From a virus, in IMG/VR virus record IMGVR_UViG_3300036806_000429: 64,000 nucleotides of DNA; one strand, 5' to 3'. Position numbers and translations under genes: made by a program. How positions within the stretch are numbered: the first letter of the stretch is position 1; every line of letters begins with the position of its first letter. Under the pieces are notes generated by a model. The model had not been told where the DNA came from. It did no database searches and saw nothing but the letters and a program-made list of their open reading frames with translations. This document shows, one piece after another, positions 4,219 to 44,811 of this stretch.

Positions 4219-4348
4219 GTCACTGTCCTCCAGGTTCTTTGTCACTAAAAACTGAACTTCGTTCGCGGGCTTGTCGACGAGGGACACCTCATCGACTGTC
4301 AAGTCCAAGAATCGTCTTTTCGGCTCGCGGGGCAAAATTCTCTCCAGC

Positions 4349-7989: not shown

Positions 7990-9456
7990 CTAGATTACGC
8001 CTGGCTCAGTGTCGCGGCGGCGCCGACGGCTTCTTGACTTGGACGCGCTTACGGCCATGTCGAAGGCGTCGAACAGATCCTTGTACCTGTGATTGGGAAA
8101 AAGCACCATGTGTTCGATCAGAAGCTGTTGTGACTTCATGAAGAACACCTTCTTGTCCTCGAAGATGGCCGACAGCTTCCAAGCGCGCGTCGTCTTGTCC
8201 TTGTCCGTCTTCAACGGCTTGAGCCGCAGCTCGGGCTTCGTCTCGCGCAGCGTTTGGTATTGGGCTTCCTGATATGCGTTGGTCTCAATCGCAATTCGGA
8301 TTGGGTCCCAACGCTTGGCGAAGTCGATGATCTTGGCCGTTTGGGCCGAGAAGCGCAGTTGGTCCTCGAAGTAGTCCAACACGTAGTAGGCCGTGCGCTC
8401 CGGCGTGACGCCGATGACGACGATCGCAAACTTGTCCGCCGTTTCCTTCTCGCTGATGGCGAGATCGACCCCCATGTACACACGGAGCTCGGACTTGTCG
8501 GGGCAATCCTTGTCGGGGATCTGCTGGCAGTCGTCGTACTGGAACACCTCGCCCTTCATGGCCTCGGTGTCGCATTGGTACTGGGCGTTGAAGATGATGA
8601 CGCCGGCTTTCCGGCGCTTCTCCGCGAACCACTTGGGCGGGTACTTCTTGGGCCAAGGCGAACGCCCGCGATGGTCCAGCCCCGGAACGATGTTGTGGTG
8701 CTCCTTCAGCTCGTTCGCGATGAGATGGCCGTACAGGTCGTCATAGTGGTACCTGGTGCCCAGCCGATGGTGCTCGCCGCGATGAGGCACGCTCGGGTCG
8801 GGCGGCTCCAGGGTCGGGTCCAGGGTCTGGTAGTACCACGTCCGCGTCTTGTCGCGTTGGTTCTTGGTGCGGCTGTTCTCCTCGTCCACCAAGTCGTCGC
8901 TGATGATCACATCGTAGTGCTTCGACACGATCGTGGTGTCGACGCCGACGCAAGTGATGGAAGCCTCCTTGTTGGGCCTCTTGCGCGGGAGCACTTCGAT
9001 CTCGCGGTTGTCCCACTTCGTGACCTTCCGCGGGTCGTAGTATTCGCCAAATATCTCAGCCAGAAGCTGGTTCGACTCGAAGTGGTTCTTGATCTCCTTC
9101 AGGAACCCTTCGGCGTTCGCCGCCGTCTTCGACGCCAACAGAATCCGCAGATCTGGATTCTTCAGCAGAAGGTGGATGGCCTTCGTGACCGTGCAGCTCG
9201 TCGTCTTGCCGGCGCCGCGGAAGGCGAGCTGAAGATTGTCAGGGTGGATGAACTGGAACCGCAACAGCTCGCGGTGGAACGGCTGCAGCTCGTTGCCCAG
9301 CACCACGTTCGCCAGGATGTCGATCCTGTTGTTCTGGATGACCTGGCGCTTGATCCACTCGTTGCCCATGCCCCGAGCGTGCTTGTACTGATCGATCAGC
9401 TCCGAGCGCTCGCCGGTGGCGATGGCTCGCTTGACAGCGAGCGACGCGACGGACAT
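7990..9456 (-). CDS. terminase large subunit
   Basis: Walker A FRGAGKTT, Walker B-like VIISDDLVDEE, and a C-terminal RNaseH-like nuclease region (YMGVDLAISE). Confidence 0.9.
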   Translation of the reverse strand: MSVASLAVKRAIATGERSELIDQYKHARGMGNEWIKRQVIQNNRIDILANVVLGNELQPFHRELLRFQFIHPDNLQLAFRGAGKTTSCTVTKAIHLLLKNPDLRILLASKTAANAEGFLKEIKNHFESNQLLAEIFGEYYDPRKVTKWDNREIEVLPRKRPNKEASITCVGVDTTIVSKHYDVIISDDLVDEENSRTKNQRDKTRTWYYQTLDPTLEPPDPSVPHRGEHHRLGTRYHYDDLYGHLIANELKEHHNIVPGLDHRGRSPWPKKYPPKWFAEKRRKAGVIIFNAQYQCDTEAMKGEVFQYDDCQQIPDKDCPDKSELRVYMGVDLAISEKETADKFAIVVIGVTPERTAYYVLDYFEDQLRFSAQTAKIIDFAKRWDPIRIAIETNAYQEAQYQTLRETKPELRLKPLKTDKDKTTRAWKLSAIFEDKKVFFMKSQQLLIEHMVLFPNHRYKDLFDAFDMAVSASKSRSRRRRRDTEPGVI

Positions 9457-10966: not shown

Positions 10967-11950
10967 CTACTTGAGCAACGGGAGCTGGCGATGCCGCTCG
11001 GTGATCTGCTTCTTCCGGTCGCCGTGGGCTCGGAAGCCGACGATGCTTTTGCGGTCCGCGACGGCGCAAAGCTTGCAACGCTCGCAGGTCACCGCCTCGC
11101 TGAGCTCCGCCGGGCAGACGACGATGGGGTGGCCTGCCGGCGTGCGGTTTCCCTTCCGCGGCGCGTCGTGCGGGAGCACAGTCGTGACCGGAAGGTGCAG
11201 CGCCATGGCTTCGTCGGCCGCCTTCAGGTTGTCCGTGGAGATGTTGACGGTGAAGCCTTCGAGCGTCGCGCGGCGGATCGCCTTGAAGTGGCGCTGGATT
11301 GGCTTGTGCGTGTAGGTGAAGCCGCGCTTCCCACGGTTGGCGTCCACGAGCTGTCCGAGGAGCTCCGTGTCCAACTCCAGGTCGCGCCCGGGAAGGTCGC
11401 CGGCCTCGTTGTGGCGCCAGACCTGGCCCTCCGGAAGCGCTCGGACGCGCTCGATGAACTCGCTCCATGGAATTCCCGTCTTGCCGCTGGACAATTTGCG
11501 CCAATGAATGGCCACTATGTGTTGCTCTGCGTAGCAGCCGCGGTTCATAAGTGGGCAAGTCGTTGGACAGGTGCTGGCCGAAGTCATGGAGACGGGGATG
11601 GGGCCTGTCTTGCGATTGCCAGATTCCTCCACGAAAAGAACACGAAGTGGGCCATCGCTCTTGATTCCCGAGCGTGGAGATGTGGCTTTTTCGCGCTCTT
11701 CTAGCGACTTTCCGTCCCAATTTGCGTACTTTTTGGTGCAAATCTTGCACCTTTTCACCAGTCTGCCTGTCTTTGATATGAAGGCGCCTGGCCTCCGCCA
11801 TGTCCAACACTGTGGGCAACGGATCTTCTGGCGACCCGTACCCTCGCAACGAGCACAGGCCGTGAGGAACGAAGCGCCCGGAACGTGGCCCGTGCTGCCA
11901 CAGGCTTCGCACGACTGCTCCATTGCACGCTTGTTCGTGGTTCGGGCCAT
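10967..11950 (-). CDS. Cys-rich protein with N-terminal CxxCxGxG knuckles, Gp88-like (recall only)
   Basis: CEACGSTGH...CARCEGTG...CPQC at the N-terminus. The central TCPTTCPLMNRGCYAE recalls mycobacteriophage Gp88-type proteins. Confidence 0.55.
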   Translation of the reverse strand: MARTTNKRAMEQSCEACGSTGHVPGASFLTACARCEGTGRQKIRCPQCWTWRRPGAFISKTGRLVKRCKICTKKYANWDGKSLEEREKATSPRSGIKSDGPLRVLFVEESGNRKTGPIPVSMTSASTCPTTCPLMNRGCYAEQHIVAIHWRKLSSGKTGIPWSEFIERVRALPEGQVWRHNEAGDLPGRDLELDTELLGQLVDANRGKRGFTYTHKPIQRHFKAIRRATLEGFTVNISTDNLKAADEAMALHLPVTTVLPHDAPRKGNRTPAGHPIVVCPAELSEAVTCERCKLCAVADRKSIVGFRAHGDRKKQITERHRQLPLLK

Positions 11951-18105: not shown

Positions 18106-19221
18106 CTAGCGGCCGGGCGCAGGGAACAGGGCTAGCGCCGCCTCGTACCAAGCAGCGCGCTTCTCCGGATCCGCCGGGATGGGCGTTAGCGCTTCGAGCT
18201 TCGGCAGGTAGGCGTGCAGAGCCTCCAGCTGTTTCGCGCCGAGCGCCGGCCTGGAAGCGGCGGCGCGCTCGGATGCCAGCGCTGTCTTCGTGAGGTCGAG
18301 CTCTTGCCTCACGGCCTCCAGGCGCTCCTGCGTCTTGGACAGTATCTCTGCGTTGTTGGCCGACACGATGTCGCTGGCCTTTGCTTCGCCCTCCAACAGA
18401 TTGACCTTTCGCCCGAGCGCCTCCGCAGCCTCGCGCGTTGCGCGGAGCTCGCGCTGCAGCTCGTGCTCGCGCGCGATGTCTTTCAACGGGTCGGCGCCGG
18501 TATCGTCGGCGCCGTCGCGCGCCTCCAGCAACACGTCCAACGAGACGCCGGTCACCTCGCTGAGCTTCAACAGCGCGTCGTCGTCCGGCTTCACGTCGCC
18601 CAGCTCGATCTCGCTGAGCTTCCCGTACGTGACGCCGACATGCGGCGCGAACGTCCTTTGGTCGTGGCGCCGTTTCAAGCGCTCCGCGCGGAAGATGTTG
18701 CCGATGGCTGTCAACTCGTGCGTCTGGCGCGTACGCTTCGCACGGAGCCGTTTGGCTGTCGGCGCCGCGAGCGCCTGCGTGTCGTCCGGCGGGCTGGAAG
18801 ATGGCGCGCCGTCCTTGGGCGGCTCGTCGCCGAACGCGGCCCAAGCCGGTTGGCTGTCCACCTCCGGATCAAGCTCTGGCTCCGCCTCTGCCTTCTTTTC
18901 GGGGAGGTCGAAGCTGACCAGGCCGGAGCCGAGCAACGTCTTGGCTCGGATGGGCGTGGGCTCGTCCACGGGCGCGGGCTTCTTGATGTCGTCCAAGCCG
19001 GTCCCTGGCGGGTAAAGGTCCGTCCAGAAGGCGAAGCTGATGTGCCCGCCCGCGGTGGCCTTCAGCTCAACGCCGCGGCGTTGTGACGAACGGATCTTGC
19101 CATGGATGAGCTTCAGCGTGTTGTTGATGGTCTTGGCGTGGACGACCTCATCGCCGCGGCGGAGCTTCTCTCGCCAGATCTTCAGACCGTTCAAGTCCAT
19201 CTTTTTCTGTTGCGCCATCAT
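18106..19221 (-). CDS. XRE-type helix-turn-helix protein with a long coiled-coil C-terminus
   Basis: The central TFAPHVGVTYGKLSEIELGDVKPDDDALLKLSEVTGVSLDVLL matches the HTH_XRE pattern. 371 aa. Confidence 0.6.
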   Translation of the reverse strand: MMAQQKKMDLNGLKIWREKLRRGDEVVHAKTINNTLKLIHGKIRSSQRRGVELKATAGGHISFAFWTDLYPPGTGLDDIKKPAPVDEPTPIRAKTLLGSGLVSFDLPEKKAEAEPELDPEVDSQPAWAAFGDEPPKDGAPSSSPPDDTQALAAPTAKRLRAKRTRQTHELTAIGNIFRAERLKRRHDQRTFAPHVGVTYGKLSEIELGDVKPDDDALLKLSEVTGVSLDVLLEARDGADDTGADPLKDIAREHELQRELRATREAAEALGRKVNLLEGEAKASDIVSANNAEILSKTQERLEAVRQELDLTKTALASERAAASRPALGAKQLEALHAYLPKLEALTPIPADPEKRAAWYEAALALFPAPGR

Positions 19222-21140: not shown

Positions 21141-21146
21141 GTCCTA

Positions 21147-21176
21147 GGTATACGGCCTGTGGATGCAGGAGTCGAG
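21147..21176 (-). promoter_or_regulatory. copy 2 of the six-copy promoter element (CTCGAC-N18-TATACC)
   Basis: AAAAAAGTTCTCGAC, then an 18-nt spacer, then TATACC, then 6 nt to the ATG. Confidence 0.5.
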
Positions 21177-22313
21177 AACTTTTTTGGAGATGGCTGATCT
21201 TTTTGCCTATGTGTGGAAGAACATTGGGGGCGGTTCGGTTGTTCTGCTGTGCGTGCGGGCCAGGCAAGGCCACGGCACGGCAAAGTTCCACGAAAACCAC
21301 ACAAGTGGGGGTGGGGAGGCTCCCTTTGCCCATGAATACCCAAGCATCGTACGTACCCACCATCCACAATACCAAAGCGTGGAAGCGCCAGCACAGCAGG
21401 GCGGGGCGGCTCGTGGAAGCACGCTGCTCGGCGATCCGTACGCGCGAGCCCGAGGGTAAGAGAGTAACATTGGATACAAGGGTAAGTAGGTAACAATACG
21501 TCTAGCGTAGGGGCGGACTACAGACTGTTACTCTCTTACCCTATCGTATGTAACCCAGTCACCCTAATAGAGAGTCTTGTAAGCCTCTGTCGGCGCCCTC
21601 TCTTGCTATGGCCTAACCTACTTACCCTGTATGCCAATTGCCTCCCAGGCACACCCACATTGGCGATTACGGATTGTCCACGATTGATAGGGGATTCTCT
21701 ATATGTAACCCTATTACCCTATAGCGTATACGTACGCGCCCCCATACGCTGTAACCCAATTACCCTATTGGCTACCACGATCGCCCATAATATACACAGG
21801 ATTATGGCTGTTGGGTCTGTGTTGTGGAAGCACCGAGCATGGTGGCTGTTGTGTGGTGGAAGTGTGCATCGCACAGCCAGCAGGGTTTCTACAGCGTCAC
21901 GGAGAACATCCCGGAGCCTTCCGCGTTCGCGTTTCCGGGGCGAGCTCGGCCGCTCCGTCACCACCGTTCTAGCCGCGAATTCCTGGGCCTTCCGCTTTCC
22001 TGGGGCAGGGCGGCAGAGTAGTCCTCCGCGCGCGTCTCCGTCCGTCTTCGTTCTACTTCCTAGGTGCTTTCGTAGTTGTGGTGGTATTTCACAGGGTGGG
22101 TGGCTGTGGCAGATCGTGGGCGAAGCGTCTGCTATGGTGGGCTGAAATGGTGGGTTTCGAGGCACAAGCCGTTGGCGAAAAACCCATGTCTCTGAAAATG
22201 GCCATTCCGCGATGGTGGCAAAACAGTCCGTAGCAAGCTCCGCCCGCTAGTGCCAAAGTCTGATGCCTAACTCAGTTACCCAACCTAGTTACCCGCGAAG
22301 GCGGGAAACAGCG
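21177..22313. repeat. non-coding, lower-GC gene desert packed with short repeat families
   Basis: No GC3-biased ORF is present. It holds a perfect 16-bp inverted repeat GGGTAAGAGAGTAACA (21454-21469 / 21526-21541), at least 8 further TTACCC/GGGTAA boxes, 5 plus-strand GTGGAAG boxes and 4 ATGGTGG boxes. Confidence 0.7.
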
Positions 22314-24260
22314 TTAGGTCCAGCGCGGCGTTGCGTCGTAGCCAGCAGGTTTGCTGTGAACTCCGAGGCCGCGTGCTAGCCGGCTCGCTTCGATGGACCG
22401 AACGTCGAGAGCGCGCGCTAGGCTTCCGACTCCGTGACAATTCGGACACAGCGGCGCATCGAGGTGCGTGATCGCGGCATGGTCGCCAAGCGGGCATGGC
22501 ACTAGCTCCACTTTGTACAGGTCCGCCTGCAGGACGCACGCCCGGCTCCGATCGCGATGCGTCTGCCCAGGAACGTCCACCCAAGCGCCCGCTCCGTCCA
22601 GGCTCCGGAACGACACCAGCACGCTCCGCGTCGCGTCGAACAGCAGCTCAGCGATGCCGGGGTGCGCGAGGCCTCCGTGCGTCTCGAGCGCCCTTAGCAG
22701 CGATGGTACCTCGTAGCGTTCGAGTTTTGCGATGCTTCCAGCACGGGCGGGTGGTGGCTCGGGCATGTCGAGCGTGTCCAATGTTGGTCCGCCGGGCCCG
22801 AGCGCGAACACCACCGGCTCACCATCGCGCCCGAACAAGATCGCGCTGTCGACGTGCCCGGACACCGGTGCTATCTCGATATCATCGATGGACGGCGTGT
22901 CGTCCAATGGCTTGCCGATGTCTTCCGGCTTCCGGCCCTTGAAGTACAGCGCGCCGCGCCCGGAGCGTGTCCGGTCGTCCTCGCCGACCGTGATCACGTA
23001 GTGACTCGGCTTCCCGTCGCGCGTGATCACTTTGATCTCGTCGCCGGCTCCGATGGTTATGGTTTTTGGCAACCCTTCCACAAGGCCCAGCTCGCTCATC
23101 AGCCGCGTGTCGGCAACTTCGCGCTCGGCATCTGTGAGGCGCGAGCGAGCCAACAACGGTGGCATTACCTTGCCAGGGTCCATCTCGAGCGCCGCGATCG
23201 TGACGGCGCGCCCGGCCAGCTTCGTCGCCTCCGTCGCCACCATCTCCAGCAGCCTGCTCTTGCCCGCGCGCAGTCCGGGCATCCAGAGGCTGCGCCGCGG
23301 CTTCGCGGGCGGATCGTCGATGAAGCGCGCCTCGTGAATGCTCACCGTTCCGTCCGGCGCCTTCGACATCGTCACGACAGCGCTGCGGTCGCCCTCGCCG
23401 CCCGGGTCGACTCCGAACAACACCGGATGGCCCGCGGCCAAGGCTTCCCGCACGGAGTCCATGCTGGGCGGCTCGCTCGTTTCCACGGGCAGCCCGGTTA
23501 GCATCGCGCCACCGACTGCTGCGCTGCCTTCGATCTTGATCGGGCGCAGCTTCTGGAACGTGATCAGCACGAGCTCGCGCGTGGGGCGGCTCGGGTCGGC
23601 GCCACGGCTGAGCTCCCGGAAGGCGTACGAGTCGCCGGAGGGCGCTACCAGGATCGACTCGCGGCGAAGGCGATGGAGCGTCTCATCCACAGGTAGCGCC
23701 CAGGAGCGCACGATGCGCTGCAAGGCTTCCACGTCCTCCACCGCTAGGCCTTCGCCTTCCACCACGATCAGCGGCTCGCCTGTCAACTTGGGCACTTCGT
23801 CCCAGATCGTGGTGATTCTTGGGAATTCAAACGTGAATGACGGCATCTCTGGGAACGCGCAAGCCGATGGCGCGCCAGGATACACCAGCTTTTCTTCCGT
23901 CGTGGCCTCGTCCCATTTCATCCGGTCCAGCGGCGTAGCCGGCTTCACTTCCACGGTGCTGCGCTTCCCGAGCGCCTTCCACCAGCGTTCGATCTCGTCC
24001 GTCTTCTGAAAGCTCCAATCCTCGCTGGTAGCGCGCAGATTGAGCACCAGCGCGTCTGCCAACGCTGCGGGCGCTAGCGTGACGCCCGCATCCACCAGGT
24101 AGCCGGCCAAGGCCTCCGGCAAGATGCCCAGAACCCCAGAAAGCTTGCGCAGTTGCTCGGTCGCGATGACCTTGTCCAGCGGCTTGTCGGGCCACTCGAG
24201 CTCTGGCGGCGCCTCCTCGTCGGCTTCGCGCGCCGCCTCCCTGAAGGCGTCGAGCTTCAT
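22314..24260 (-). CDS. MKL-leader family protein (648 aa)
   Basis: ATG 24260 gives MKLDAFREAA (the track is over-extended to 24383). C-terminal CPNCHGVG knuckle. Confidence 0.6.
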   Translation of the reverse strand: MKLDAFREAAREADEEAPPELEWPDKPLDKVIATEQLRKLSGVLGILPEALAGYLVDAGVTLAPAALADALVLNLRATSEDWSFQKTDEIERWWKALGKRSTVEVKPATPLDRMKWDEATTEEKLVYPGAPSACAFPEMPSFTFEFPRITTIWDEVPKLTGEPLIVVEGEGLAVEDVEALQRIVRSWALPVDETLHRLRRESILVAPSGDSYAFRELSRGADPSRPTRELVLITFQKLRPIKIEGSAAVGGAMLTGLPVETSEPPSMDSVREALAAGHPVLFGVDPGGEGDRSAVVTMSKAPDGTVSIHEARFIDDPPAKPRRSLWMPGLRAGKSRLLEMVATEATKLAGRAVTIAALEMDPGKVMPPLLARSRLTDAEREVADTRLMSELGLVEGLPKTITIGAGDEIKVITRDGKPSHYVITVGEDDRTRSGRGALYFKGRKPEDIGKPLDDTPSIDDIEIAPVSGHVDSAILFGRDGEPVVFALGPGGPTLDTLDMPEPPPARAGSIAKLERYEVPSLLRALETHGGLAHPGIAELLFDATRSVLVSFRSLDGAGAWVDVPGQTHRDRSRACVLQADLYKVELVPCPLGDHAAITHLDAPLCPNCHGVGSLARALDVRSIEASRLARGLGVHSKPAGYDATPRWT

Positions 24261-24478
24261 CGCTGGTTCCTGGCTTCCAGTCGTCGCAGCGCGGCGCGGC
24301 GCCGGAGCTCGTACGGAACAGCGCGCGCGAAGTTGAAGGCGAAGGCCGCGACGCACGTCCAGAACGTGAAGATGCCGGCCCACCCGGCCAACCAGGTCAG
24401 CAGGCGCGCCGCGTACCAGAGCGCGACGAGCAAGAAGCTACCGGCCAACACGAGCGCGGAGGCGAATGCCGTGAACAT
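24257..24478 (-). CDS. small membrane protein (2 TM)
   Basis: ATG 24478 gives MFTAFASALVLAGSFLLVALWYAARLLTWLAGWAGIFTFWTCVAAFAF. ATGA overlap downstream. Confidence 0.5.
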   Translation of the reverse strand: MFTAFASALVLAGSFLLVALWYAARLLTWLAGWAGIFTFWTCVAAFAFNFARAVPYELRRRAALRRLEARNQR

Positions 24479-24480
24479 GC

Positions 24481-25047
24481 TCACATCCCTTCTTTCAATC
24501 GAACGAGCGCGGGCGGTTGGACGCGGCGGCCGAATCCATTGCACATTACGCACAGATTGGTCTTGCCGCGCACATATTCGTGTTCTTCCTTGCCGGTGCA
24601 GGCCGGACAGTCTTCCAACTCCAGATGGCGATACAACACCTTGGCGTCCGAGCCGACGGGAATGTGCGTCAAGCCACTCTTTACTGCGATGCGCGGCTCC
24701 GGCGGTGGTGGCTCGTCCGGCCTAGGTCGCGTGTGCAAGTCCTCCGTCGCCAAGACCAAGCAATTGCGCTGTTTTGACCAAAGCAGCTGGCCTTCCACCA
24801 TGATCGACGCCAGACCGTCTTTGTTGCCGGCAGCGAGCTGGCGGAGCTCGTCGGCGAGAGATTGGCTCTTGGCCACCACCTTGTGGCTCGGGCTGTGGAT
24901 CGGCAGCGCGGGGTGGCCGAGTTGGACCGGCTGGCCACGGTCGTTGAACACCGTGATCTCCACGTTGTCGATCCGTCGCGGCCGGCCCGTGTTGGGGTTG
25001 ATGTGGTCCGTGCCCCGGAGCCGGGCACGGAACTTGTCCAGCTTCAT
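24481..25047 (-). CDS. MKL-leader family protein with a CxxC / CxxCxGxG pair
   Basis: MKLDKFRARL start. CPACTGK...CVMCNGFG near the C-terminus. Confidence 0.6.
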   Translation of the reverse strand: MKLDKFRARLRGTDHINPNTGRPRRIDNVEITVFNDRGQPVQLGHPALPIHSPSHKVVAKSQSLADELRQLAAGNKDGLASIMVEGQLLWSKQRNCLVLATEDLHTRPRPDEPPPPEPRIAVKSGLTHIPVGSDAKVLYRHLELEDCPACTGKEEHEYVRGKTNLCVMCNGFGRRVQPPALVRLKEGM

Positions 25048-25562
25048 GGCGGCAACCCCTTTTTGAATGGAGCGACGCTCTTGGCTGACAACACCCAGCC
25101 AACGCCATCGCAGCTGTGGCAGATGCCCATGTCCAGGCTGGTTTCAGGACCCGTCAGTCGTCCGTCGCCGCCACAAGTCCGACAGCGGATGTCGTGCTTC
25201 ACGCGATACAGCTCCTCCAAGAGCACTTCACGGCGGATGCGGCGATGCCGGCCGCCGTTTTTCGTCCGCTCCCACCACTCCACCTTCACGGGCCCGAAGG
25301 TCATGCCAGGATCGAACACGTCGATCACCTTCACCAGCTCATTCTCGCTGCGATAGTACAGGTGGCCTTGGACCAGCGACATGCGCCCCTTCAGTTCCAC
25401 TTCCGTGCGCGCGTTCGGCGGCCAATTTGGATCTGGCTCCTCCCAACGGCCCATCAGCTCGTCGGCGAGGCGCCCAGCCGGCACCGTCTCCACCGCCTTG
25501 GGCACAGGCGGCGCGGCCAGAGCCGTCGTCCGGAGCGCGTTGCGGAGCGCGCCGAGCTTCAT
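25044..25562 (-). CDS. MKL-leader family protein with paired CxxCxGxG
   Basis: ATG 25562 gives MKLGALRNAL, in an ATGA overlap. CRTCGGDG...CHSCDGVG. Confidence 0.6.
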   Translation of the reverse strand: MKLGALRNALRTTALAAPPVPKAVETVPAGRLADELMGRWEEPDPNWPPNARTEVELKGRMSLVQGHLYYRSENELVKVIDVFDPGMTFGPVKVEWWERTKNGGRHRRIRREVLLEELYRVKHDIRCRTCGGDGRLTGPETSLDMGICHSCDGVGWVLSAKSVAPFKKGLPP

Positions 25563-26512
25563 CGGGCCGTCCTCGCGGCGAGCTTTCGCCGGAGCCGCTC
25601 GGCAAACGCGGCCTCGCCGTCCTCGTCGCCGTCGATGAAGTCCGCGAAGCGCGGCTGCTTCGCGAGAAGCGCGCGGATCCGTGCGAGCTCGCCCGGCAGC
25701 GGCCACTTGCCCACGCCGTCGCAGAAGGGGCAAGGGTGATCGCCGTCCTTGCCCACGGTTGACACGGGGTGCGCGGCCTTGCCGCTTCCGTCGCACCAGC
25801 CACAGTCGTACCTGTCGACGTGGAACAGCGCGTCGGAGGCCACGTTGGCCGTGTAGGCGACGGCCGGCGAGCGCGCGCTGCTCGACGGGTTGACGCGCAC
25901 CACAATCCTGGGCTTGCTGTTGATAACGTCCAAGAAGAAGCCGCCGATGCCGAGCACCATGGCATCGTGCTCCGCCGAGAACAGCGGCACGTTCGCTAAC
26001 GCTTCTATGTGTTCCTCGTTGGTGCCCTCCTGCTCAGCTACGCTGATGGGCATCGCCACGAGCGTCGGGCCCGGCGGCAGCAACAGGCCATCCATGTCGA
26101 CCTTCCGCCGTTGCCCATCGACATCGCCCCCTATCTGGACCAGCAGGCCGCCGCAACTGATACAGCGTGGCGAGAATTTGTGGCGCGGCTCGCCGTCGCA
26201 CATCGCACACTGCTCCAGCGGCACGCGATACAGGTGAAACTCCAGAACCCAGCTCTTGTAGCGACGCCCTTCCAGGTAGGCGTGAACGCGGCGCACCTTG
26301 CCGTCGTCGCTGCCGTTGCCCACGTACACGAGCCGATCGTGCGGCCGCGAATACAGAACGGCTCCGGGCTCGCACTCGCCGCCGGTCAGCTGCTGCCACT
26401 CGTCCGTCGCCGAGCCCATCGATGCCACTCGAGCCCAGGCCGGGAGCTCGGCCGCTTTCGGCACCACGACCTCGCCGCCGCGCAGGTGGTCTTTGAGCTG
26501 CCCGAGCTTCAC
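25559..26512 (-). CDS. MKL-leader family protein with two zinc-knuckle pairs
   Basis: GTG 26512 gives VKLGQLKDHL, in a GTGA overlap. CAMCDG...CISCGG and CGWCDGSG...CPFCDGVG. Confidence 0.6.
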   Translation of the reverse strand: MKLGQLKDHLRGGEVVVPKAAELPAWARVASMGSATDEWQQLTGGECEPGAVLYSRPHDRLVYVGNGSDDGKVRRVHAYLEGRRYKSWVLEFHLYRVPLEQCAMCDGEPRHKFSPRCISCGGLLVQIGGDVDGQRRKVDMDGLLLPPGPTLVAMPISVAEQEGTNEEHIEALANVPLFSAEHDAMVLGIGGFFLDVINSKPRIVVRVNPSSSARSPAVAYTANVASDALFHVDRYDCGWCDGSGKAAHPVSTVGKDGDHPCPFCDGVGKWPLPGELARIRALLAKQPRFADFIDGDEDGEAAFAERLRRKLAARTAR

Positions 26513-26940
26513 GGCTCCAGCCTCGATCCGGCGAGCCAGCCTTGGCCGCGGCAGTTGTGGCAAACCTGCTCGCCTGGTAGGAAGCCCTGGCCGTCACAGA
26601 TCGGACAACACTTCATGGGCGCTAGGAACAGGCTGTCTTGCGCAACCCAAGCGTCCTCCCAATTCTCCTTCGTCGGGCTCCAGTAGGCCGTCTTGGCCAC
26701 GGCCGTGATCAGCCCGCTGTCCAGCGCCGTCTTGTTCTGGAGCGCCTTCACCGTCACGACGCGACTGTGCGCCATGTCCCAGAAGCGAACGCCCAGCGGA
26801 ATGGTGGGGTGCTTCACCAAGATGGCGCTGAGCCGCTCGCCAATGCACTCCTCGCCCGACCAAGTGATCCAGGGCGGAGGCCGCAAGGCGCGCTCCGGGA
26901 GCGGCCCGCGCTGACGCGCGCGGAATTCTTCCAGCTTCAC
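26509..26940 (-). CDS. MKL-leader family protein with paired CxxCxGxG
   Basis: GTG 26940 gives VKLEEFRARQ, in a GTGA overlap. CPICDGQG...CHNCRGQG. Confidence 0.6.
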   Translation of the reverse strand: MKLEEFRARQRGPLPERALRPPPWITWSGEECIGERLSAILVKHPTIPLGVRFWDMAHSRVVTVKALQNKTALDSGLITAVAKTAYWSPTKENWEDAWVAQDSLFLAPMKCCPICDGQGFLPGEQVCHNCRGQGWLAGSRLEP

Positions 26941-27467
26941 GCCGTCCTCCGAAGGTGGGTGCCCAAGCCCATGCAACTCCCGCAAAGCGCGTCTGTGTCC
27001 GTGCCGGTGGTCACGCCATTCCAGCTGACGATCGGGACTTCGCAGCGACCCGTTCCCTGGCACATCTCGCACGGGACCATTCGAGCTTCAATGAGGTTCG
27101 CCGCCTTCACCGTGAAGCTGATCCAGCCGCGTCCGAGATCGTACCGCCCCACGAGCACATCGGGGTTGGTGATGCGAGAACCGGTGGGATCCCAGACCGG
27201 TCCAACCTCCTCCACGACGACAAGGCGCCGCGATGACTCGGGCGAATTCTCCGGAGACAGGTACAGCTCGCCCACGCGCTTGGCACGAGGCGCCTGTTCC
27301 AAGCCCCAGGCCAACGTCGAGCCGCCCGGAGGTACGACGCCAGGCCTGAAGCGCACGTTGTTGAGGCTGGCCGGATGGGGCTGCCGCCCCGTCCAGGGCA
27401 CCGGCGCTTTCGGCTTCAGAATGGCCGCCCCTCGCCGGGCGAGCGCGCGGAAGGCGGACAGCTTCAC
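26937..27467 (-). CDS. MKL-leader family protein with paired CxxCxGxG
   Basis: GTG 27467 gives VKLSAFRALA, in a GTGA overlap. CEMCQGTG...CGSCMGLG. Confidence 0.6.
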   Translation of the reverse strand: MKLSAFRALARRGAAILKPKAPVPWTGRQPHPASLNNVRFRPGVVPPGGSTLAWGLEQAPRAKRVGELYLSPENSPESSRRLVVVEEVGPVWDPTGSRITNPDVLVGRYDLGRGWISFTVKAANLIEARMVPCEMCQGTGRCEVPIVSWNGVTTGTDTDALCGSCMGLGTHLRRTA

Positions 27468-27739
27468 GTGACGGGCCCTTTGTTCTTCCTGTAGCGAACG
27501 GCGAGAGCCACCCAAAGCGTGTTGGCCGTGACCACCAGCATGCCAGCGATCCAACTCGAATACTGCTTCAGCTGGAAGTAATACACCAAGTTCCAGAAGC
27601 CCCACAGAGCGAACCAGGCGACCTGGATGACGCGGATCCCCGACACGAATTTGTCGCGATAGAGCTTGTGGCAACTCCAGAAGATGAAGCCGGCGGCGCC
27701 GAATTCAAACGCGGCGTTGATGTGGTCCAATGGCTTCAC
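27464..27739 (-). CDS. small 3-TM membrane protein (weak SemiSWEET/PQ-loop-like pattern)
   Basis: GTG 27739 in a GTGA overlap. FGAAGFIFWSCHKLYRDKFVSGIRVIQVAWFALWGFWNLVYY...IAGMLVVTANTLWVALAV. Confidence 0.5.
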   Translation of the reverse strand: MKPLDHINAAFEFGAAGFIFWSCHKLYRDKFVSGIRVIQVAWFALWGFWNLVYYFQLKQYSSWIAGMLVVTANTLWVALAVRYRKNKGPVT

Positions 27740-31818: not shown

Positions 31819-32037
31819 TCATGGTAGATATTCCATAGTTTCCACGGCGCCTACTCGCTTGGCGGCCTGGGCGCAGCTCCAGCACATCGGCACGTCGTCG
31901 GCGACAACGACGGCCGCATTGTCACAATCCAACTCGAGCTCGATCAGCGCCTCGCACCGGAGCTCGATGCGCGGAACGCTAGGAGATGGAGAAGATGCCA
32001 CTTCGCTCCCAATTGATCTGGAAAGAATCGCCCTCAT
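31819..32037 (-). CDS. possible small protein (weak)
   Basis: The start is uncertain (ATG 32037 or GTG 32001). It overlaps the upstream gene end. Confidence 0.3.
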   Translation of the reverse strand: MRAILSRSIGSEVASSPSPSVPRIELRCEALIELELDCDNAAVVVADDVPMCWSCAQAAKRVGAVETMEYLP

Positions 32038-32668
32038 TGATGCGGTATGGGCTTTCAGTCTCGATGTCGGTGCCGTACTGCGCCGTTGGCTTCCACCCCT
32101 TCTTCGTGGCAGAGCCCTTGACCACCAGGACGAGTCGGAACGCCTTCACAGTGCCCGGCACCATCGTCGCCGGGCCGAACGTGACGTTGTCCGCCTTCAA
32201 TGACGTCCCGAGGCAGATCACGCCCGTCAGCGCAATTGCCTCCGACATTATGGCGCCGGTCGTGTCGACAAGCGCCACCTTCAAGTCGCGCATCGCCTTC
32301 GGCACGTGCGTGGCGAATTCCTCAACCACCAACGCGAAGAATTCAAACGGCTCCATCATCTTGACAGCCGCTGGAGCAAGGAGCTTCTTTCGCTTGCCTT
32401 CCAGGCGGAGGCCTGAGCCGTTGCAGTCGGGACAGCGATCGGCAGAAGCGCCGCGGCCGAAGGCGCTTGTGAGCTCGGTGTCGAACAGAGCTGCCAACTT
32501 GTCGGCGTCCTCGTCCGGGCGCGCCTCGGGATTGACGCCCGTGCCGTTGCAGGTTGGGCAGTTGCTCGGGTGTGGCTTGGGAGGCGGAGGCGGCTTGGGC
32601 GGCACGTACTTCGTCGGCTTGGCCTGTTCCGCCTTCTGGAGCGCGCGGCGGAGCTCGTTGAGCTTCAT
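31979..32668 (-). CDS. MKL-leader family protein with paired CxxCxGxG
   Basis: MKLNELRRAL start in an ATGA overlap. CPTCNGTG...CPDCNGSG follows a Pro-rich linker. Confidence 0.6.
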   Translation of the reverse strand: MKLNELRRALQKAEQAKPTKYVPPKPPPPPKPHPSNCPTCNGTGVNPEARPDEDADKLAALFDTELTSAFGRGASADRCPDCNGSGLRLEGKRKKLLAPAAVKMMEPFEFFALVVEEFATHVPKAMRDLKVALVDTTGAIMSEAIALTGVICLGTSLKADNVTFGPATMVPGTVKAFRLVLVVKGSATKKGWKPTAQYGTDIETESPYRINEGDSFQINWERSGIFSIS

Positions 32669-33333
32669 CGTCCGAACCTCCGTGCGTTGAAGCGCGCCTG
32701 GCGCAGTTGCTCTCGCCGCTGCTCGCGGGCGGTCAACTTCGCCGGCCGACCGCGGCGCGGATCGTGACCCATCGGCGCCGGCTCTGCCTTGGGTTGCTCC
32801 TCGGCCGCTGCCAAGAGCTCGTCCGCCAACTCCTTCATGCTGGGGTGGGCGCCGAAGTCCGAGATGCTGTCCAAGGTCATCTTCACGCCCTCGGCCAGGC
32901 CCTTCACGCCTTCGCCCAGACCAGCCATCGCCGACACCACGTCCGACATCGACATGCCTGTCATGCGCGCGGCGAGCTCGGCCAGCGACGGCTCCCTGAT
33001 CGGGTCGTCGATGATCAGGAGGTCGGCGCTGCGGCCGTGCGTCTTCTTGTCACGCACATGGCGAAGTCCGCCGCTGATGAGTTGAAACAGCGCGGTGGCA
33101 TCCTCTGCGCCCTTCGTGCCCTCCATGCCCGTGAGGTTGCGATAGGCCAGGCTCAGCGCGTCGAGCACCTGTGTGTGCGTACGGTGGCAGCTTGCTGCCA
33201 GAAAGTCGATCAGCCTCCAAGTGGCGATCACTTCCGGCGATGCGTTGTCCGGCGGAGCTCCGCGCGCCTCCTCCGGCGGAGTCTCATCCAGCTCGCCGGA
33301 GCGCGCCGCGCCGCGGATGGACTCGAGCTTCAC
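32665..33333 (-). CDS. MKL-leader family protein (no zinc knuckle)
   Basis: GTG 33333 gives VKLESIRGAA, in a GTGA overlap. Confidence 0.55.
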   Translation of the reverse strand: MKLESIRGAARSGELDETPPEEARGAPPDNASPEVIATWRLIDFLAASCHRTHTQVLDALSLAYRNLTGMEGTKGAEDATALFQLISGGLRHVRDKKTHGRSADLLIIDDPIREPSLAELAARMTGMSMSDVVSAMAGLGEGVKGLAEGVKMTLDSISDFGAHPSMKELADELLAAAEEQPKAEPAPMGHDPRRGRPAKLTAREQRREQLRQARFNARRFGR

Positions 33334-34007
33334 AGCAACTCCAGGTCGGAGACGTTGAGCGACAGCGAAGCGCCCGGATAGGGCGGGATGGCTACGCTCC
33401 AAGAATCGCCACCATTCGTCATGTCCGTCGAAAAGTCGCCACCGTATTGGTCCGTGCGCAAACGCCCCCACATTCGACCGTCCTTGTGCTGGATGTCTTC
33501 GATCCAGGACGACTCCGGCCACGCGCGGAACTGGATGGCATCGTGGAAGACGGCCGTGGGAAGCTTATCGCGCAGCAGCTCCAGATCGACAGGGAGACCA
33601 ACCAGGGCAGTACATTGCGAGCCTACCGGGCGCCTCGCGACGATGCGCACGGTCCATTGGCTTTTCTCGATGCCGCGAGCGCCGAAGTTGACGCGCAACG
33701 GTTGAAGGTGTTGGCTCATGCCACTTTCATACAAGATCAACTTGAACTCTAGCGTTCCACGGAAGTGATCTCGATCCATGGTCACGCGCAGGTCGTGGCC
33801 GTGCTCCTCCTGGTCCAGCCCGAGCTCCTCGCACAGATCGTACAACGGCTTGGGGGTGTAATTCTTCCGAAAGCCATCGACCAACGCACCCAGCGCGATG
33901 TCCTTCTCAAGCTTCTGGCCGACGTAACGCGATTGGAAGACGGGGCCATGGACGCCCGTCGCAAGGTTCAACCCTTCCAGCGCTTGCTTCCATTCAGCCA
34001 ATTTCAT
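33330..34007 (-). CDS. MKL-leader family protein (no zinc knuckle)
   Basis: ATG 34007 gives MKLAEWKQAL. Confidence 0.55.
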   Translation of the reverse strand: MKLAEWKQALEGLNLATGVHGPVFQSRYVGQKLEKDIALGALVDGFRKNYTPKPLYDLCEELGLDQEEHGHDLRVTMDRDHFRGTLEFKLILYESGMSQHLQPLRVNFGARGIEKSQWTVRIVARRPVGSQCTALVGLPVDLELLRDKLPTAVFHDAIQFRAWPESSWIEDIQHKDGRMWGRLRTDQYGGDFSTDMTNGGDSWSVAIPPYPGASLSLNVSDLELL

Positions 34008-35242: not shown

Positions 35243-35612
35243 GCGAACCGCCTGAGCAGTAGCGCTCGAACATCGCCGTGAGCACGGCGTCCATGGCGTT
35301 GCCGACGCGAACGCCGCGCGCTCGATGCAGCGGCCCCCGCTCCAGCACGTCGTCCGACGAAGCCTTAGCGACGAGGCGATGGCGGACGCGGCGCGCGGAG
35401 TTGGGCCAAGGCTTATCGGCCGTGTACTGCCAATCCAACTTTGCGTACGGATCCTCAACCAGCGCGGCCTCCGCCGCGGCGAAGACGGAGCCGGCGGCCG
35501 CCCCGAGCTCCTCCGGCGAGAGCTCACCGGCCTTGTTCGGGTAGACCTCCACCGACACGCACGGGACGGCGCTGGACTCGCCGAGCCGCCCGCGGCTGAT
35601 TCCGAAGCTCAC
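35235..35612 (-). CDS. hypothetical protein
   Basis: GTG 35612 in a GTGA overlap. Confidence 0.5.
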   Translation of the reverse strand: MSFGISRGRLGESSAVPCVSVEVYPNKAGELSPEELGAAAGSVFAAAEAALVEDPYAKLDWQYTADKPWPNSARRVRHRLVAKASSDDVLERGPLHRARGVRVGNAMDAVLTAMFERYCSGGSHD

Positions 35613-36151
35613 TTGCCCGCTTCCTTCAACAACGCACGAACCCGCTCCAGCTCTTTCGCCGTGTGGACCACGCCGCCGCTGTTCATCTCCAGGTACCAAC
35701 GGAGAACGGCGGCGCGCGTCTCCAGGTGATTGACGTGCCAGTTGAAGAAACAGGTGGTCAAACGCGGCGTGTCCTCGAAGTCACGCCGCAGCAAGGTGCC
35801 GCTGCCGAGCTCCGGGAAGTGGACGGCGAGGCGATTGTTCATGAAGCGGCGGACGGCCTCCAAGCGCTGCTTCCCATCCACGATCACGTACGGCCCGCGC
35901 CAGTCGCGCATCCAACCGACGCAGTTGAAGTACAGGTCCTTGCCGGACCCTCCGCCGCGCAGGATGAATTCCACATAGCGCGCGCGCTTCTCGTCGTTCC
36001 AGACGTGCGCCCGTTGGAAGTCCGGCTCCAGGTCGAGCGGCGCCGAATCCTCCTGCGTCTGTTTTTCGATGTGCCGTTCCAGGTAATCCCAGCCGACCGT
36101 GACGCAGTACGCGCCCGGCTGGGTGAGCTTCTTGATCTGTTCGAATTTCAC
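35609..36151 (-). CDS. DUF262-like (ParB/Srx-fold nuclease-type) domain protein
   Basis: GTG 36151 with an AAGGAGAG SD. PDFQRAHVWNDEKRARYVEFILRG...YVIVDGKQRLEAVRRF matches the DUF262 xxFQRxxVW...DGQQR pattern. Confidence 0.6.
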   Translation of the reverse strand: MKFEQIKKLTQPGAYCVTVGWDYLERHIEKQTQEDSAPLDLEPDFQRAHVWNDEKRARYVEFILRGGGSGKDLYFNCVGWMRDWRGPYVIVDGKQRLEAVRRFMNNRLAVHFPELGSGTLLRRDFEDTPRLTTCFFNWHVNHLETRAAVLRWYLEMNSGGVVHTAKELERVRALLKEAGK

Positions 36152-38614: not shown

Positions 38615-39568
38615 ATGCTAAAAGAGATTCTGCTGGCTCTCCTGCTGAAACACGCTCCTCCTGGCCACACCAAGTATTCCGTCGAGATGGCGCCCGAGTG
38701 CGCTTGGGCGCAGGATCAGACGTGCGAGGGCGCCGTCTGGTCGACCTTCTATGGCGGCTGGGTGCGGCATGAGTCCGCCGATAGCGGCGCGGAGCGGCTC
38801 CGGCTGATCGCCTCTGCCGTGGTCGACTCTGCCACGGAGCTGCTGTGCCTGCGTGACGACGGAACGAAGGTGGACGGTTGCAAGCCGGAGCCCGGCGCGA
38901 TGCTCGCTGGTGGCAAGAAGCCGCGCTGGCGACTGACGGAGCTGACGATGGTGGAAGCGGCCGTGCTGATCATGGAGTCGGGCCTGCGCGAGGATGTCGA
39001 AGTTGGCCGCGGCCGAGCTCGGAAGCACCCCAAAGATCCGCCGACAGACGATGCAGGCGGCGAAGGGCGAGGGCCGGCGAACGAAGCTTGCCTGGCCCAG
39101 ATCCACCCTGTAATCGCGTTCCGCTACGCTGACGCCGTGCCCGAGGAGCTCCGCAAGCGTGCGGCGCGGGACGAGCGCGGCGCCCGGGAGGAGCTCGCCC
39201 AGCTGCTGCTCGGAACGTCGCCGGAGGCGCTCCGCCGCTGCGTGCGAACGTCGATGCGGATGCTCATCGCGGCGCGTGCGTACTGCGATTGGCGCTATGA
39301 GCAGAACCTGAAGGAGCTCAAGAACTACAACAAAGCGCTGAAAGCCGCGGACCAGTCCTGGGCATTCGCCACATTCAGTCTGTACGGCACCGGGGAATCC
39401 TGCGGCGCCTACAACCGCGGCAAGACGCCGTTGCGAGCGGAGCTCTACAAGAAGCTGGCCGAGGAGGCGAAAGAGGCCTGGCGCGCTACTCGAGCGCGTC
39501 ACGCACCAGCTCCGCCTGCTCGGCCGCCTTCGCTACCGTCGCCAAGTCGATCTTCTTCAACCCCCTGA
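38615..39568 (+). CDS. plus-strand hypothetical protein with a weak lytic-transglycosylase-like motif
   Basis: The plus frame is GC3-rich. IMESGLRED...GEGRGPANEACLAQIH loosely resembles the SLT E-S...GLMQ motif. Its last 83 nt overlap the convergent gene. Confidence 0.45.
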   Translation: MLKEILLALLLKHAPPGHTKYSVEMAPECAWAQDQTCEGAVWSTFYGGWVRHESADSGAERLRLIASAVVDSATELLCLRDDGTKVDGCKPEPGAMLAGGKKPRWRLTELTMVEAAVLIMESGLREDVEVGRGRARKHPKDPPTDDAGGEGRGPANEACLAQIHPVIAFRYADAVPEELRKRAARDERGAREELAQLLLGTSPEALRRCVRTSMRMLIAARAYCDWRYEQNLKELKNYNKALKAADQSWAFATFSLYGTGESCGAYNRGKTPLRAELYKKLAEEAKEAWRATRARHAPAPPARPPSLPSPSRSSSTP

Positions 39569-40649
39569 ACCTTTTCTCGGCGATCGGCATCTGGCGGTGG
39601 AAGCGGATGAAGGCGCCGTGGACCTCGGACGAGCGGGGCTTCACCATGCCGCTCGTCACGAGGTCGTCCATGATCTTCAGCGCGCGCGGCGACGCCTCGG
39701 CCGAGACCTTCGTGACGGCGTACACGCCGCCCGGCTTGCGGTGGCCGCACTTACGCTCGGGCTCGCCCTTCGTCGTCTTCACGATGGCCAAACCCTTCAC
39801 CGCCTTCAGCTCCTCCGGCGTCTCGTCGCCGCGCAGGATGTATTCGATGCGGTCCGGGGCGAACAGGCCGAAGATGCGCCCGCAAGGCAGGTCGCCCGTG
39901 CCGCCGCATGATTCGCACATCTCGCGAGAGACCACCTGGGTGTCGGGGTGGAACTTCTTGGGCTGGTGCAGCCAGTAGTTGAAGGTGCGGTAATCCCACT
40001 TGCGCCCGTCCACGAGCGTGACGTGGCCGCCGGTGCCGGCCTTGTAGAAGCCCTTGCCCTTGCAGTCCTCGCACTCCTCCGTCTCGCGCTCCAGCGCTTC
40101 GATCCGCGCCTCCCGGACGCGCACGAAACGCTTGTTGCCGTCGCTCGCCTCCGCGTCGAAGTCCTCGCCCTTGAACGCGGCCTTCATCTTGTCGATCGCC
40201 GAGCGCAAGCCCGCCATCTCGCTGATGGCCTTGCGGCAACGCGGACACTCCACCTTGCCCATGCAGTCGGGGCAATCCTTCATCTCGCCCTCGTCGTGGG
40301 CGACGAACACGACGCAGCCCGGATCCATGAGCTTGCGGCCGAGCGCGACGCCGGGAAGCCGCTTGGAGACGCCCAGGGCAATCGCCTCGTCGCTCCAGTC
40401 TGCGATTCCCTTGTAGGATTCGCTGCCAACCCAGATCAGGTAGGCGGCCGTGATGGAGGTTTTCGGCGCGGCTTTCTTGGCCTTCTTCTTGGCCTTGGCG
40501 GCGTCGTGTGCCGCCGCGTGGGCCTCGATGGCCTTCCGCTCAAAGTCTGGATCGCCGTGCACGCTGCAATCCTGCGTGTGCTCTTTGGGCGTTTCGTCGG
40601 TGCCGCCGCAGCAGCCGAAGTCGGGAGCCTTGGTCTTCTTGCTAGCCAT
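39486..40649 (-). CDS. hypothetical Cys-rich protein, first gene of a predicted leaderless operon
   Basis: ATG 40649 lies 7 nt downstream of the TATGCT -10. CPDCMGKVECPRC, CEDCKGKG and CESCGGTG motifs. Confidence 0.6.
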   Translation of the reverse strand: MASKKTKAPDFGCCGGTDETPKEHTQDCSVHGDPDFERKAIEAHAAAHDAAKAKKKAKKAAPKTSITAAYLIWVGSESYKGIADWSDEAIALGVSKRLPGVALGRKLMDPGCVVFVAHDEGEMKDCPDCMGKVECPRCRKAISEMAGLRSAIDKMKAAFKGEDFDAEASDGNKRFVRVREARIEALERETEECEDCKGKGFYKAGTGGHVTLVDGRKWDYRTFNYWLHQPKKFHPDTQVVSREMCESCGGTGDLPCGRIFGLFAPDRIEYILRGDETPEELKAVKGLAIVKTTKGEPERKCGHRKPGGVYAVTKVSAEASPRALKIMDDLVTSGMVKPRSSEVHGAFIRFHRQMPIAEKRFRGLKKIDLATVAKAAEQAELVRDALE

Positions 40650-40656
40650 GGAGGGA

Positions 40657-40686
40657 AGCATAACCGCTTCACTTCCACGCGTCGAG
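40657..40686 (-). promoter_or_regulatory. copy 6 of the six-copy promoter element (CTCGAC-N18-TATGCT)
   Basis: AAAAAAGTTCTCGACGCGTGGAAGTGAAGCGGTTATGCT, then 7 nt to the ATG. Confidence 0.5.
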
Positions 40687-44455: not shown

Positions 44456-44811
44456 TTGCCGCAGTCGGCCGGGCAGCCGTCGTGGTGGAAGTGGAGCGGC
44501 TCGCCCAACGGGCAGGCGATGATGGAGCAGATCAGGCATTCCGCGTCGGAGCAGGCCTTGTAGTCACCGATCTCCACGCCGTGGATCAAAGCCAAGAGCT
44601 CCTTCCCGCCCGTCTGCTCCTCGATCTCCATGGCCTCCTTGATCGTCAGACCGGCCGGAGCGCCGCCGGTTCCACGGCAACGCGGACACGGCGCCGGCTT
44701 CCCGCCGTGCGCCGACGACCAAGCGGCCGCCGTGTGATCGTTCCAGTCGTCCTCGCCGTCGGACTTGTACTGGCCGGAGCCGTCGCAGAGCTCGCACTTG
44801 GGTTCGGTCAC
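44452..44811 (-). CDS. hypothetical protein with paired CxxCxGxG knuckles
   Basis: GTG 44811 in a GTGA overlap. CELCDGSG...CPRCRGTG. Confidence 0.5.
   Translation of the reverse strand: MTEPKCELCDGSGQYKSDGEDDWNDHTAAAWSSAHGGKPAPCPRCRGTGGAPAGLTIKEAMEIEEQTGGKELLALIHGVEIGDYKACSDAECLICSIIACPLGEPLHFHHDGCPADCGK

Follow-up and report, generated by a model that had tools for sequence, protein, structure and literature searches.

A 12-residue N-terminal leader on a tandem, zinc-knuckle-bearing accessory gene family in an uncultured phage lineage

The IMG/VR virus record IMGVR_UViG_3300036806_000429 was analysed as one stretch of 64,000 nucleotides (nt), referred to here as the window, which carries on its minus strand, at positions 22314–27467, six tandem genes whose products begin with (M/V)KLxx(F/L)(R/K) and which are joined by NTGA stop-start overlaps. 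The shared N-terminal stretch, hereafter the leader, follows a 12-residue consensus, M-K-L-x-x-(F/L/I/W)-(R/K/Q)-x-x-(L/A)-R-(G). An initial annotation of the DNA, made from the letters alone, had described a tandem array of six coupled genes with this leader, unrelated middles and C-terminal CxxCxGxG zinc knuckles, and had proposed that the leader might serve as a packaging, cleavage or secretion tag or as a docking helix for one common partner.

Numbered from its downstream end, the array opens with member 6 (26937–27467; 176 amino acids, aa), which has the leader VKLSAFRALARRG, a proline-rich linker and the C-terminal knuckles CEMCQGTG and CGSCMGLG. Its ortholog in a second phage, L218, is P0013 (L218:10001–10513; 56% identical), the protein through which that phage was reached. 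Member 5 (26509–26940; 143 aa) joins the leader VKLEEFRARQRG to a tryptophan-rich core and to CPICDGQG/CHNCRGQG, and is 63% identical to its L218 ortholog. Member 4 (25559–26512; 317 aa; 45% identical in L218), with leader VKLGQLKDHLRGG, has the zinc centres CAMCDG/CISCGG and CGWCDGSG/CPFCDGVG. Member 3 (25044–25562; 172 aa), with leader MKLGALRNALRT and CRTCGGDG/CHSCDGVG, is 49% identical to an L218 ortholog that carries a 12-aa insertion right behind the leader, and member 2 (24481–25047; 188 aa; leader MKLDKFRARLRG; CPACTG/CVMCNGFG) is 31% identical to its counterpart. Member 1 (22314–24260; 648 aa) has the leader MKLDAFREAARE, an acidic body without detectable relatives and a single CPNCHGVG near the C-terminus; its last ~120 aa are weakly similar to the small members, over its first 24 aa it is 83% identical to the L218 ortholog, and searches of Pfam and the PDB returned no match for it. 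The six N-termini, coordinates and sizes given by the initial annotation are thus borne out on the minus strand.

At five junctions stop and start overlap by 4 nt (NTGA), and a Shine–Dalgarno-like stretch precedes each of them. The starts at these overlaps, which the initial annotation had re-derived, agree with two further sources. Logan contig SRR11835809_252738, another assembly of the phage annotated by an independent gene caller, gives six identical lengths, and L218 has six orthologous genes in the same order, all starting at the same MKL position. Five of the L218 genes use ATG, including the orthologs of all three GTG starters of the window; such an exchange of GTG for ATG at one position is typical of true starts. 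The account of a tandem coupled array holds for the six genes, but it overlooked a 73-aa open reading frame (ORF) between members 2 and 1 (24257–24478, minus strand), which encodes a membrane protein with two hydrophobic helices and neither leader nor knuckle. This ORF ends in an ATGA overlap with member 1 and was also called on the Logan contig; L218 lacks it, and members 2 and 1 adjoin directly there.

The leader is strongly over-represented at protein starts. The pattern K-L-x-x-[FLIW]-[RK] occupies residues 2–7 in 10 of 91 called genes (~11%) against 0.011 expected, compared with four internal occurrences against 2.4 expected, and an extended form of the motif occurs at nine ORF starts in the window and at none in 1.70 Mb of unrelated viral contigs. 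Six leader genes lie at 22314–27467, and four more stand outside that span, in a three-gene cluster (starts at 34007, 33333 and 32668) and at 58381, all on the minus strand. The first gene of the cluster (33330–34007; 225 aa; leader MKLAEWKQALEG) has no zinc motif, and its orthologs at L218:6046 (45% identical) and L089:12391 (about 24–27%) keep MKLxxWK. The second (32665–33333; 222 aa; leader VKLESIRGAARSG) likewise has no zinc motif and contains the segment GRSADLLIIDDPIRE. The third (31979–32668; 229 aa; leader MKLNELRRALQK) continues with a poly-proline linker, the knuckles CPTCNGTG/CPDCNGSG, which lie near the N-terminus, and then a different C-terminal domain. The tenth gene (58124–58381; 85 aa; leader MKLGELRQSLKG) has a weak ExoX-like_C match and lies directly upstream of a DnaE-type polymerase gene, as do its orthologs, which retain the leader core (MSKLDELRAKLRTG in L002, MPTLKELRNWARG in L004 and LPSLEEIREWLRG in L003). 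A further case is a unique 197-aa leader gene (MKLDEMRRRFERG; L220:3728–4321) inserted between homologs of sbcD and sbcC, which are adjacent in the window. The leader also heads proteins with no knuckles: two of the upstream cluster, the gene at 58381 and the L220 gene. All ten leader genes of the window lie 22–58 kb in, within the replication/accessory region and coupled to non-structural genes; eight of the ten are translationally coupled, compared with 24 of 81 other genes (p = 0.003), and the leader is missing from all head-module proteins. Separately, a 371-aa protein with a helix–turn–helix domain (18106–19221) shows a leader-like stretch, DLNGLKIWREKLRRG, from residue 8 rather than at its N-terminus.

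Comparison of the window proteins with their L218 orthologs separates three zones. The six motif positions of the leader are 77% identical and its other positions 30%; the linker, comprising the next ~23 residues, is 36% identical with 21% gap columns; and in the body, identity is 46% and gaps make up 9%. Insertions of 12–16 residues occur right behind the leader in two of eight ortholog pairs, and residues 13–40 of the leader genes contain 15% proline, compared with 4.3% in other genes (p = 2e-5). Among paralogs, similarity is confined to the leader and the knuckle region; the middles, described at the outset as unrelated by eye, indeed show no significant similarity in Smith–Waterman comparisons (z ≤3.9 over 55 pairs). 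AlphaFold2 predicts a short N-terminal helix followed by disorder from both a five-paralog alignment (predicted local distance difference test, pLDDT, 45.5) and a two-ortholog alignment (54.4). For member 5, the predicted leader helix spans residues 3–10, a disordered stretch residues 11–27 and a moderately confident small beta-rich core residues 30–110, with the leader left undocked on the body. Since pLDDT is low (45 and 54), these models weakly suggest a helix on a disordered linker. Foldseek searches of the PDB and BFVD gave nothing significant (best E 0.22 and 0.018, to generic small beta-barrels), and sequence searches of the PDB gave no match. An array member thus consists of a 12-residue N-terminal helix, as modelled, a proline-rich linker of variable length and a fast-evolving body.

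Other signals that a short N-terminal peptide might represent fit poorly. Sec and Tat signals comprise an N-region and a hydrophobic core of 10–20 residues, with S/T-R-R-x-F-L-K in the Tat type; a test for them found no such core and no twin-arginine motif, and the sequence behind the leader is charged and proline-rich, so that the secretion-tag option is not borne out. A membrane-anchoring leader likewise finds no support: its hydrophobic moment is 0.37, compared with 0.29 ± 0.15 in the N-termini of other proteins, and its helix is only some three turns long. Beta-clamp-binding motifs take the form QL[SD]LF or QLxLxL, with glutamine first in an extended pentapeptide or hexapeptide. The leader has lysine for glutamine in almost all copies and is a predicted helix with conserved basic residues; only the L…F spacing fits.

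Conservation of the leader resides in the peptide. Position 7 is encoded by AGG, CGT, CGC or AAA and position 6 by TTC, CTC, ATC, CTG or TGG; orthologous leaders of the two phages are identical at only 17–21 of 36 nt (47–58%) with the motif retained, and in the distant DnaE-adjacent orthologs the motif has shifted its register with the core L-x-E-φ-R-x-x-φ-R-G intact. Within one genome, paralogous leaders are identical at 16.9–17.8 of 33 nt, equal to non-orthologs across genomes (17.0), compared with 23.1 for orthologs, which rules out gene conversion or concerted evolution among them. As codons vary with residue class kept and gene conversion is excluded, selection acts on the residue class of the leader peptide and not on its nucleotides.

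The second shared element is the zinc knuckle. The called proteins contain 17 copies of CxxCxGxG, where 0.025 are expected; it is present in seven of ten leader genes compared with three of 82 others (p = 1.5e-6). The knuckles listed in the initial annotation were all found, and each array member ends with one or two of them; for member 4 the listed pair stands, but with its four CxxCxG motifs the protein has two zinc centres, formed by separate knuckle pairs ~115 aa apart. The array body is a small beta-rich core, as modelled, closed by one putative Cys4 zinc centre of two CxxCxGxG knuckles. Three leaderless proteins also carry knuckles (39486–40661, 44452–44811 and 10967–11950). These comprise a 391-aa protein that is conserved throughout the lineage (38–63% identity) and has no family match, an ORF of ~119 aa with CELCDGSG/CPRCRGTG, and a DUF7227 protein.

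The family has no relatives outside an uncultured lineage of phages of about 105–116 kb with a DnaE-type polymerase. Pfam, PHROGs, NCBIfam and PADLOC returned only sub-threshold matches, all to the zinc knuckle; word-index searches of 5.8 billion proteins with members 1 and 4 retrieved only the queries themselves; and a profile of the five small members run against 1.84 billion representatives recovered the four window members present among them, P0013 and generic leaderless multi-knuckle proteins. A metagenome scan with the member-5 alignment and an IMG/VR scan with member 1 found no relatives. These searches uphold the earlier statement that no family of this architecture has been described. 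Within the lineage, L218 has a separate ortholog for each array member, at 31–63% identity, indicating that the duplications are old and that each copy has been maintained. In L089, DnaE is 77% identical and the three-gene leader cluster only 24–30%, and the array position, before a long non-coding gap, is held by two leader genes (272 and 176 aa) with C-terminal knuckles and bodies unrelated to the window members. These rates and replacements fit the suggestion of diversifying accessory effectors. One body segment sits in different leader genes of two phages: GRxADLLIIDDPI lies in the second cluster gene of the window and in the third of L089. In the window it is GRSADLLIIDDPIRE, residues 100–114 of the protein encoded at 32665–33333 (~32980–33021), and in L089 GRRADLLIIDDPIKE (L089:13676–14392). 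It nearly copies the Walker-B strand of the large terminases of many unrelated phages (TGRGADLLIIDDPIKNREEA; the phage's own large terminase, TerL, has DVIISDD) and could be a captured fragment or a mimic. As a probe for the lineage, the DNA pattern of ADLLIIDDPI retrieved no relatives and was discarded, the pattern being the terminase strand itself. In more distant lineage members, leader genes are few or absent within 10 kb of the gene for the conserved 391-aa protein, indicating that the expansion is confined to a sub-lineage. Taken with the L089 replacements, the segment found in different genes and the L220 insertion, this makes the leader a portable head for varied, fast-changing accessory genes, with its expansion in a single sub-lineage.

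The phage has a G+C content of 64%, and its minus strand carries nearly all genes of the window, transcribed from a replication/accessory region towards a head module. The former includes ThyX, a DnaE-type polymerase (54268–58131), SbcCD and a FEN-type exonuclease; the latter includes TerL (7990–9456), a portal protein (6107–7984), a Mu-F-like protein and a capsid protein. A prohead protease, as had been reported for this DNA, is present: it is of the XkdF/S78_2 type (4349–4987) and accompanied by a putative scaffold (3406–4335), both leaderless and of a family unlike T4 gp21/gp22. Megablast of the locus against deposited phages found no near relative; the IMG/VR lineage consists of contigs of ~104–116 kb with DnaE 59–77% identical and gene order kept. 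In L004 the DnaE homolog (L004:10007–15979) has 1990 aa, compared with 1287 aa in the window, with long insertions containing intein-like and HNH-like sequence. Just 3′ of the array, an ORF-free gap of 1.17 kb (21141–22313) marks the end of the array operon. A ~19-nt iteron-like element, TGTAACCCnnTTACCCTAT, is present in it at least seven times at 21453–21768, five times in direct and twice in inverted orientation; a weaker copy lies at 18066, and L089 has an AT-rich, repeat-laden gap of ~800 nt at the equivalent place behind its array. The gap may serve as an origin of replication or as a switch region for regulation. At the other end, the stop of a gene for a 91-aa membrane protein (27464–27739, minus strand), which has no family match, overlaps the start of member 6. 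Because its homologs (41–50% identical) occur in unrelated phages that lack arrays, beside methyltransferase, nucleotidase or chaperonin genes, it was rejected as a conserved anchor or specific partner of the array. Elsewhere, a 180-aa protein starting VKFEQIKKL (35609–36151), with a homolog in L218, has a match to DUF262, the N-terminal domain of GmrSD type IV restriction enzymes (36.4 bits, over the cut-off). Rfam and tRNA scans detected no non-coding RNA.

At a probability of roughly 0.45, we favour reading the array as modular accessory proteins that belong to one lineage-specific family and arose by tandem expansion; their leader would be a docking helix on a tether, with a single partner common to all. 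Docking or targeting peptides usually take this form, in which a conserved short helix is joined by a flexible, proline-rich tether to a folded head that varies, and among the functions suggested in the initial annotation a docking helix best fits the anatomy, namely the low-confidence helix of the AlphaFold2 models, the indel-prone proline-rich linker and selection on residue class. The leader would bring different bodies to one shared partner during the early or middle, non-structural phase of infection, and the variable bodies would supply different target specificities. Candidate partners are the leader-bearing proteins themselves or some hub of phage or host, for instance a replisome component, chaperone or protease. 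We infer an intracellular hub more than a procapsid, given that the leader genes are non-structural and coupled, that one lies beside the polymerase and that head proteins are untagged; the family, acting as effectors, would evolve fast because it deals with the host. Several points weigh against this interpretation. Whole-leader identity between orthologs is 56%, a modest excess only over the 48% found outside it; the two structure models have low confidence; the list of 91 genes in the window comes from a simple caller based on GC3; and the lineage has no cultured member, TerL and DnaE being at most 33% and 35% identical, respectively, to any deposited phage by tblastn. Moreover, leader and knuckles co-occur so strongly that most leader genes may be one old paralog family in which the N-terminus is merely inherited.

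A broader version, possible but somewhat unlikely, is that the leader is a genome-wide portable address tag that sends any protein gaining the helix and linker to one destination, either the procapsid interior or a single host or phage hub. In the procapsid form, this could be an independently evolved packaging system resembling that of T4, with an XkdF-type protease and at least ten fast-evolving zinc-ribbon effectors for injection; in the hub form, one hub could be reprogrammed with interchangeable adaptor heads. A tag on ~11% of genes is a rare handle on proteins that lack relatives, and one 12-residue peptide could place ten of them at once. A capsid destination would mean an independent invention of the injected anti-defence strategy of T4 and P1, and a cargo tag for a different capsid type; if it is a host hub, the proteins would form a new class of phage adaptors or takeover factors whose zinc-ribbon heads can be exchanged. 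More generally, start-anchored searches for short motifs can group phage genes that sequence and fold searches cannot link.

Ordinary descent offers an unlikely account: the array members would be very old tandem paralogs with one inherited fold, constrained most tightly at its N-terminal helix and zinc centre, the leader packing, for example, on the domain or mediating self-association and having no separate address function. The tandem, translationally coupled layout, the strong co-occurrence of leader and knuckles and the L218 ortholog of each member, which dates the duplications as old, all favour this account; MAFFT also threads the five small members end to end, and marginal full-length or C-terminal similarity links member 3 to member 5 (E = 1.5e-6) and to member 4 (E = 0.005 over 164 aa). 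Set against this are the leaders on different, knuckle-free bodies (34007, 33333, 58381 and L220:3728), the poorly conserved, indel-rich, proline-rich linker that parts leader from body, the absence of significant similarity between the middles and, as weaker evidence, the predicted undocked position of the leader on the core. That the conserved element is an RNA- or translation-level signal, such as a repressor operator, an NTGA re-initiation enhancer or a recombination landing pad with the peptide as by-product, is highly improbable. In eight of the ten leader genes the start codon lies in an NTGA overlap; the overlap obliges codon 2 to open with A and favours AAG, partly explaining lysine at position 2, and RTGAAGCTS is found in nine of the ten, the gene at 34007 having ATGAAATTG. 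Past these first 9 nt, however, residue class and not sequence is kept, orthologous leaders are no more than 47–58% identical in nucleotides, concerted evolution within the genome is absent, no Rfam match was obtained, and distant orthologs shift the motif by 1–2 residues (MSKL, MPTL), keeping the peptide and losing the RNA register.

Two further explanations retain a role for the peptide. The leader might be an N-terminal degron or adaptor tether read by a host or phage AAA+ protease (such as ClpXP, Lon or FtsH), either timing the removal of early proteins or delivering bound targets for degradation; we regard this as very unlikely, and as a special case of docking from which the data do not separate it. 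N-terminal ClpX signals and adaptor tethers, such as the ClpX-binding peptide of SspB, are exposed basic and hydrophobic peptides on flexible linkers, a description that suits the leader, and accessory genes of the non-structural region are expected to be transiently expressed; no defined degron consensus was shown to match it, however, and family-library scans found no protease or adaptor gene beside the array. It is also doubtful, and a matter of analogy, that the leader is a capsid-targeting sequence (CTS) whose bearers are packaged and injected as anti-defence or takeover effectors. T4 internal proteins are uniformly basic; the leader proteins are of mixed charge, with isoelectric points from 5.2 to 9.8. 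Nor is there a conserved (L/I)xE site, or a glutamate or other cleavage determinant at a fixed distance, and the leader is found on no head-module protein, all ten genes having non-structural neighbours in the replication/accessory region and one, ExoX_C-like, standing beside DnaE. On the other hand, the logic is that of the T4 CTS, a 10–19-residue N-terminal peptide that suffices to package the divergent proteins that bear it (PMC9026906, PMC3012670), and P1 DarB likewise has an N-terminal packaging signal of 30 residues (PMC9024508). The leader sits on a flexible linker, the bodies evolve fast, and the window holds both a prohead protease and a putative scaffold. On such a model, the leader would bind the procapsid scaffold or core, and the protease may remove it.

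Set beside known systems, the zinc module recalls the DnaJ cysteine-rich domain (PF00684) and Anti-TRAP (PF15777) in its paired CxxCxGxG knuckles, two of which, as in Anti-TRAP, are expected to form one Cys4 zinc centre. Its scores lie below the curated cut-offs of both, its flanks are unrelated, and it lacks a J domain. PF00684 scores at best 19.5 bits in the array and 22.2 bits for the 31979–32668 protein against a gathering threshold of 32.7, J-domain searches gave no match, and DnaJ equivalog models reach 13–17 bits against cut-offs of 338–556. DnaJ has a four-repeat module of two interleaved centres; the array proteins have one or two knuckles, two per centre, and member 4 has two pairs. 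For Anti-TRAP, PF15777 scores 15.4 bits against 32 and NF058604 19.4 against 65, and the array proteins have 143–648 aa with extra domains, compared with ~53 aa. A match to lambda Q-like antiterminators (PHROG 6060/127) spans only 19 residues round one knuckle of the 31979–32668 protein (E = 5e-7) rather than the Q fold, with E of 0.03 or worse for array members and 0.62 for the Q chain in the PDB.

For the leader, the closest parallel is the CTS of T4, a propeptide of 10–19 residues, with residues 4 and 7 for targeting and 8 and 10 for processing, that is removed by gp21 (PMC9026906; PMC3012670). In IPI, IPII, IPIII and Alt, as here, a short N-terminal peptide is common to divergent, fast-evolving accessory proteins, and a 12-aa motif on 10 genes with dissimilar bodies is a shared short peptide of this kind; its key hydrophobic pair, L3 and F6, is likewise spaced i, i+3, and the effector bodies vary between related phages. 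In contrast, the consensus MKLxxFRxxLRG shares only M-K with MKTYQEFIAE, the (L/I)xE cleavage site is lacking, glycine at 12–13 being common and not universal, the leader genes belong to the replication/accessory region rather than to the head module, and the protease is XkdF/S78-type, not gp21-type. Membership of the T4 type is thus not supported, and likeness of function is a doubtful analogy. In P1 DarB the N-terminal ~30 residues suffice to send cargo to the capsid (PMC9024508), which places an N-terminal packaging tag outside T4; DarB differs in being one very large protein and not the bearer of a motif of a multigene family, and no sequence relation is evident.

In overall design, the family resembles polymorphic toxins, the MIX and FIX effectors of type VI secretion systems and the LXG proteins of type VII secretion systems, in which a conserved N-terminal trafficking or docking module precedes diverse C-terminal modules. 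Such constant-head families often form tandem arrays whose modules shuffle between genes, with heads of 50–200 aa that serve bacterial secretion. The constant head, rapidly changing bodies, tandem array and module shuffling are shared; the head here is a 12-residue helix in a phage, with no secretion apparatus or immunity genes present. PeSL mobile regulatory cassettes of T4-type phages, reportedly non-coding, nucleotide-conserved elements of a promoter and a stem-loop that mediate modular shuffling, are similar as repeated elements at gene boundaries tied to the insertion or replacement of accessory genes, and different in that the leader is conserved at the amino-acid level and without homogenization. 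Together, these comparisons place the architecture as an undescribed family within the theme of constant tag and variable effector.

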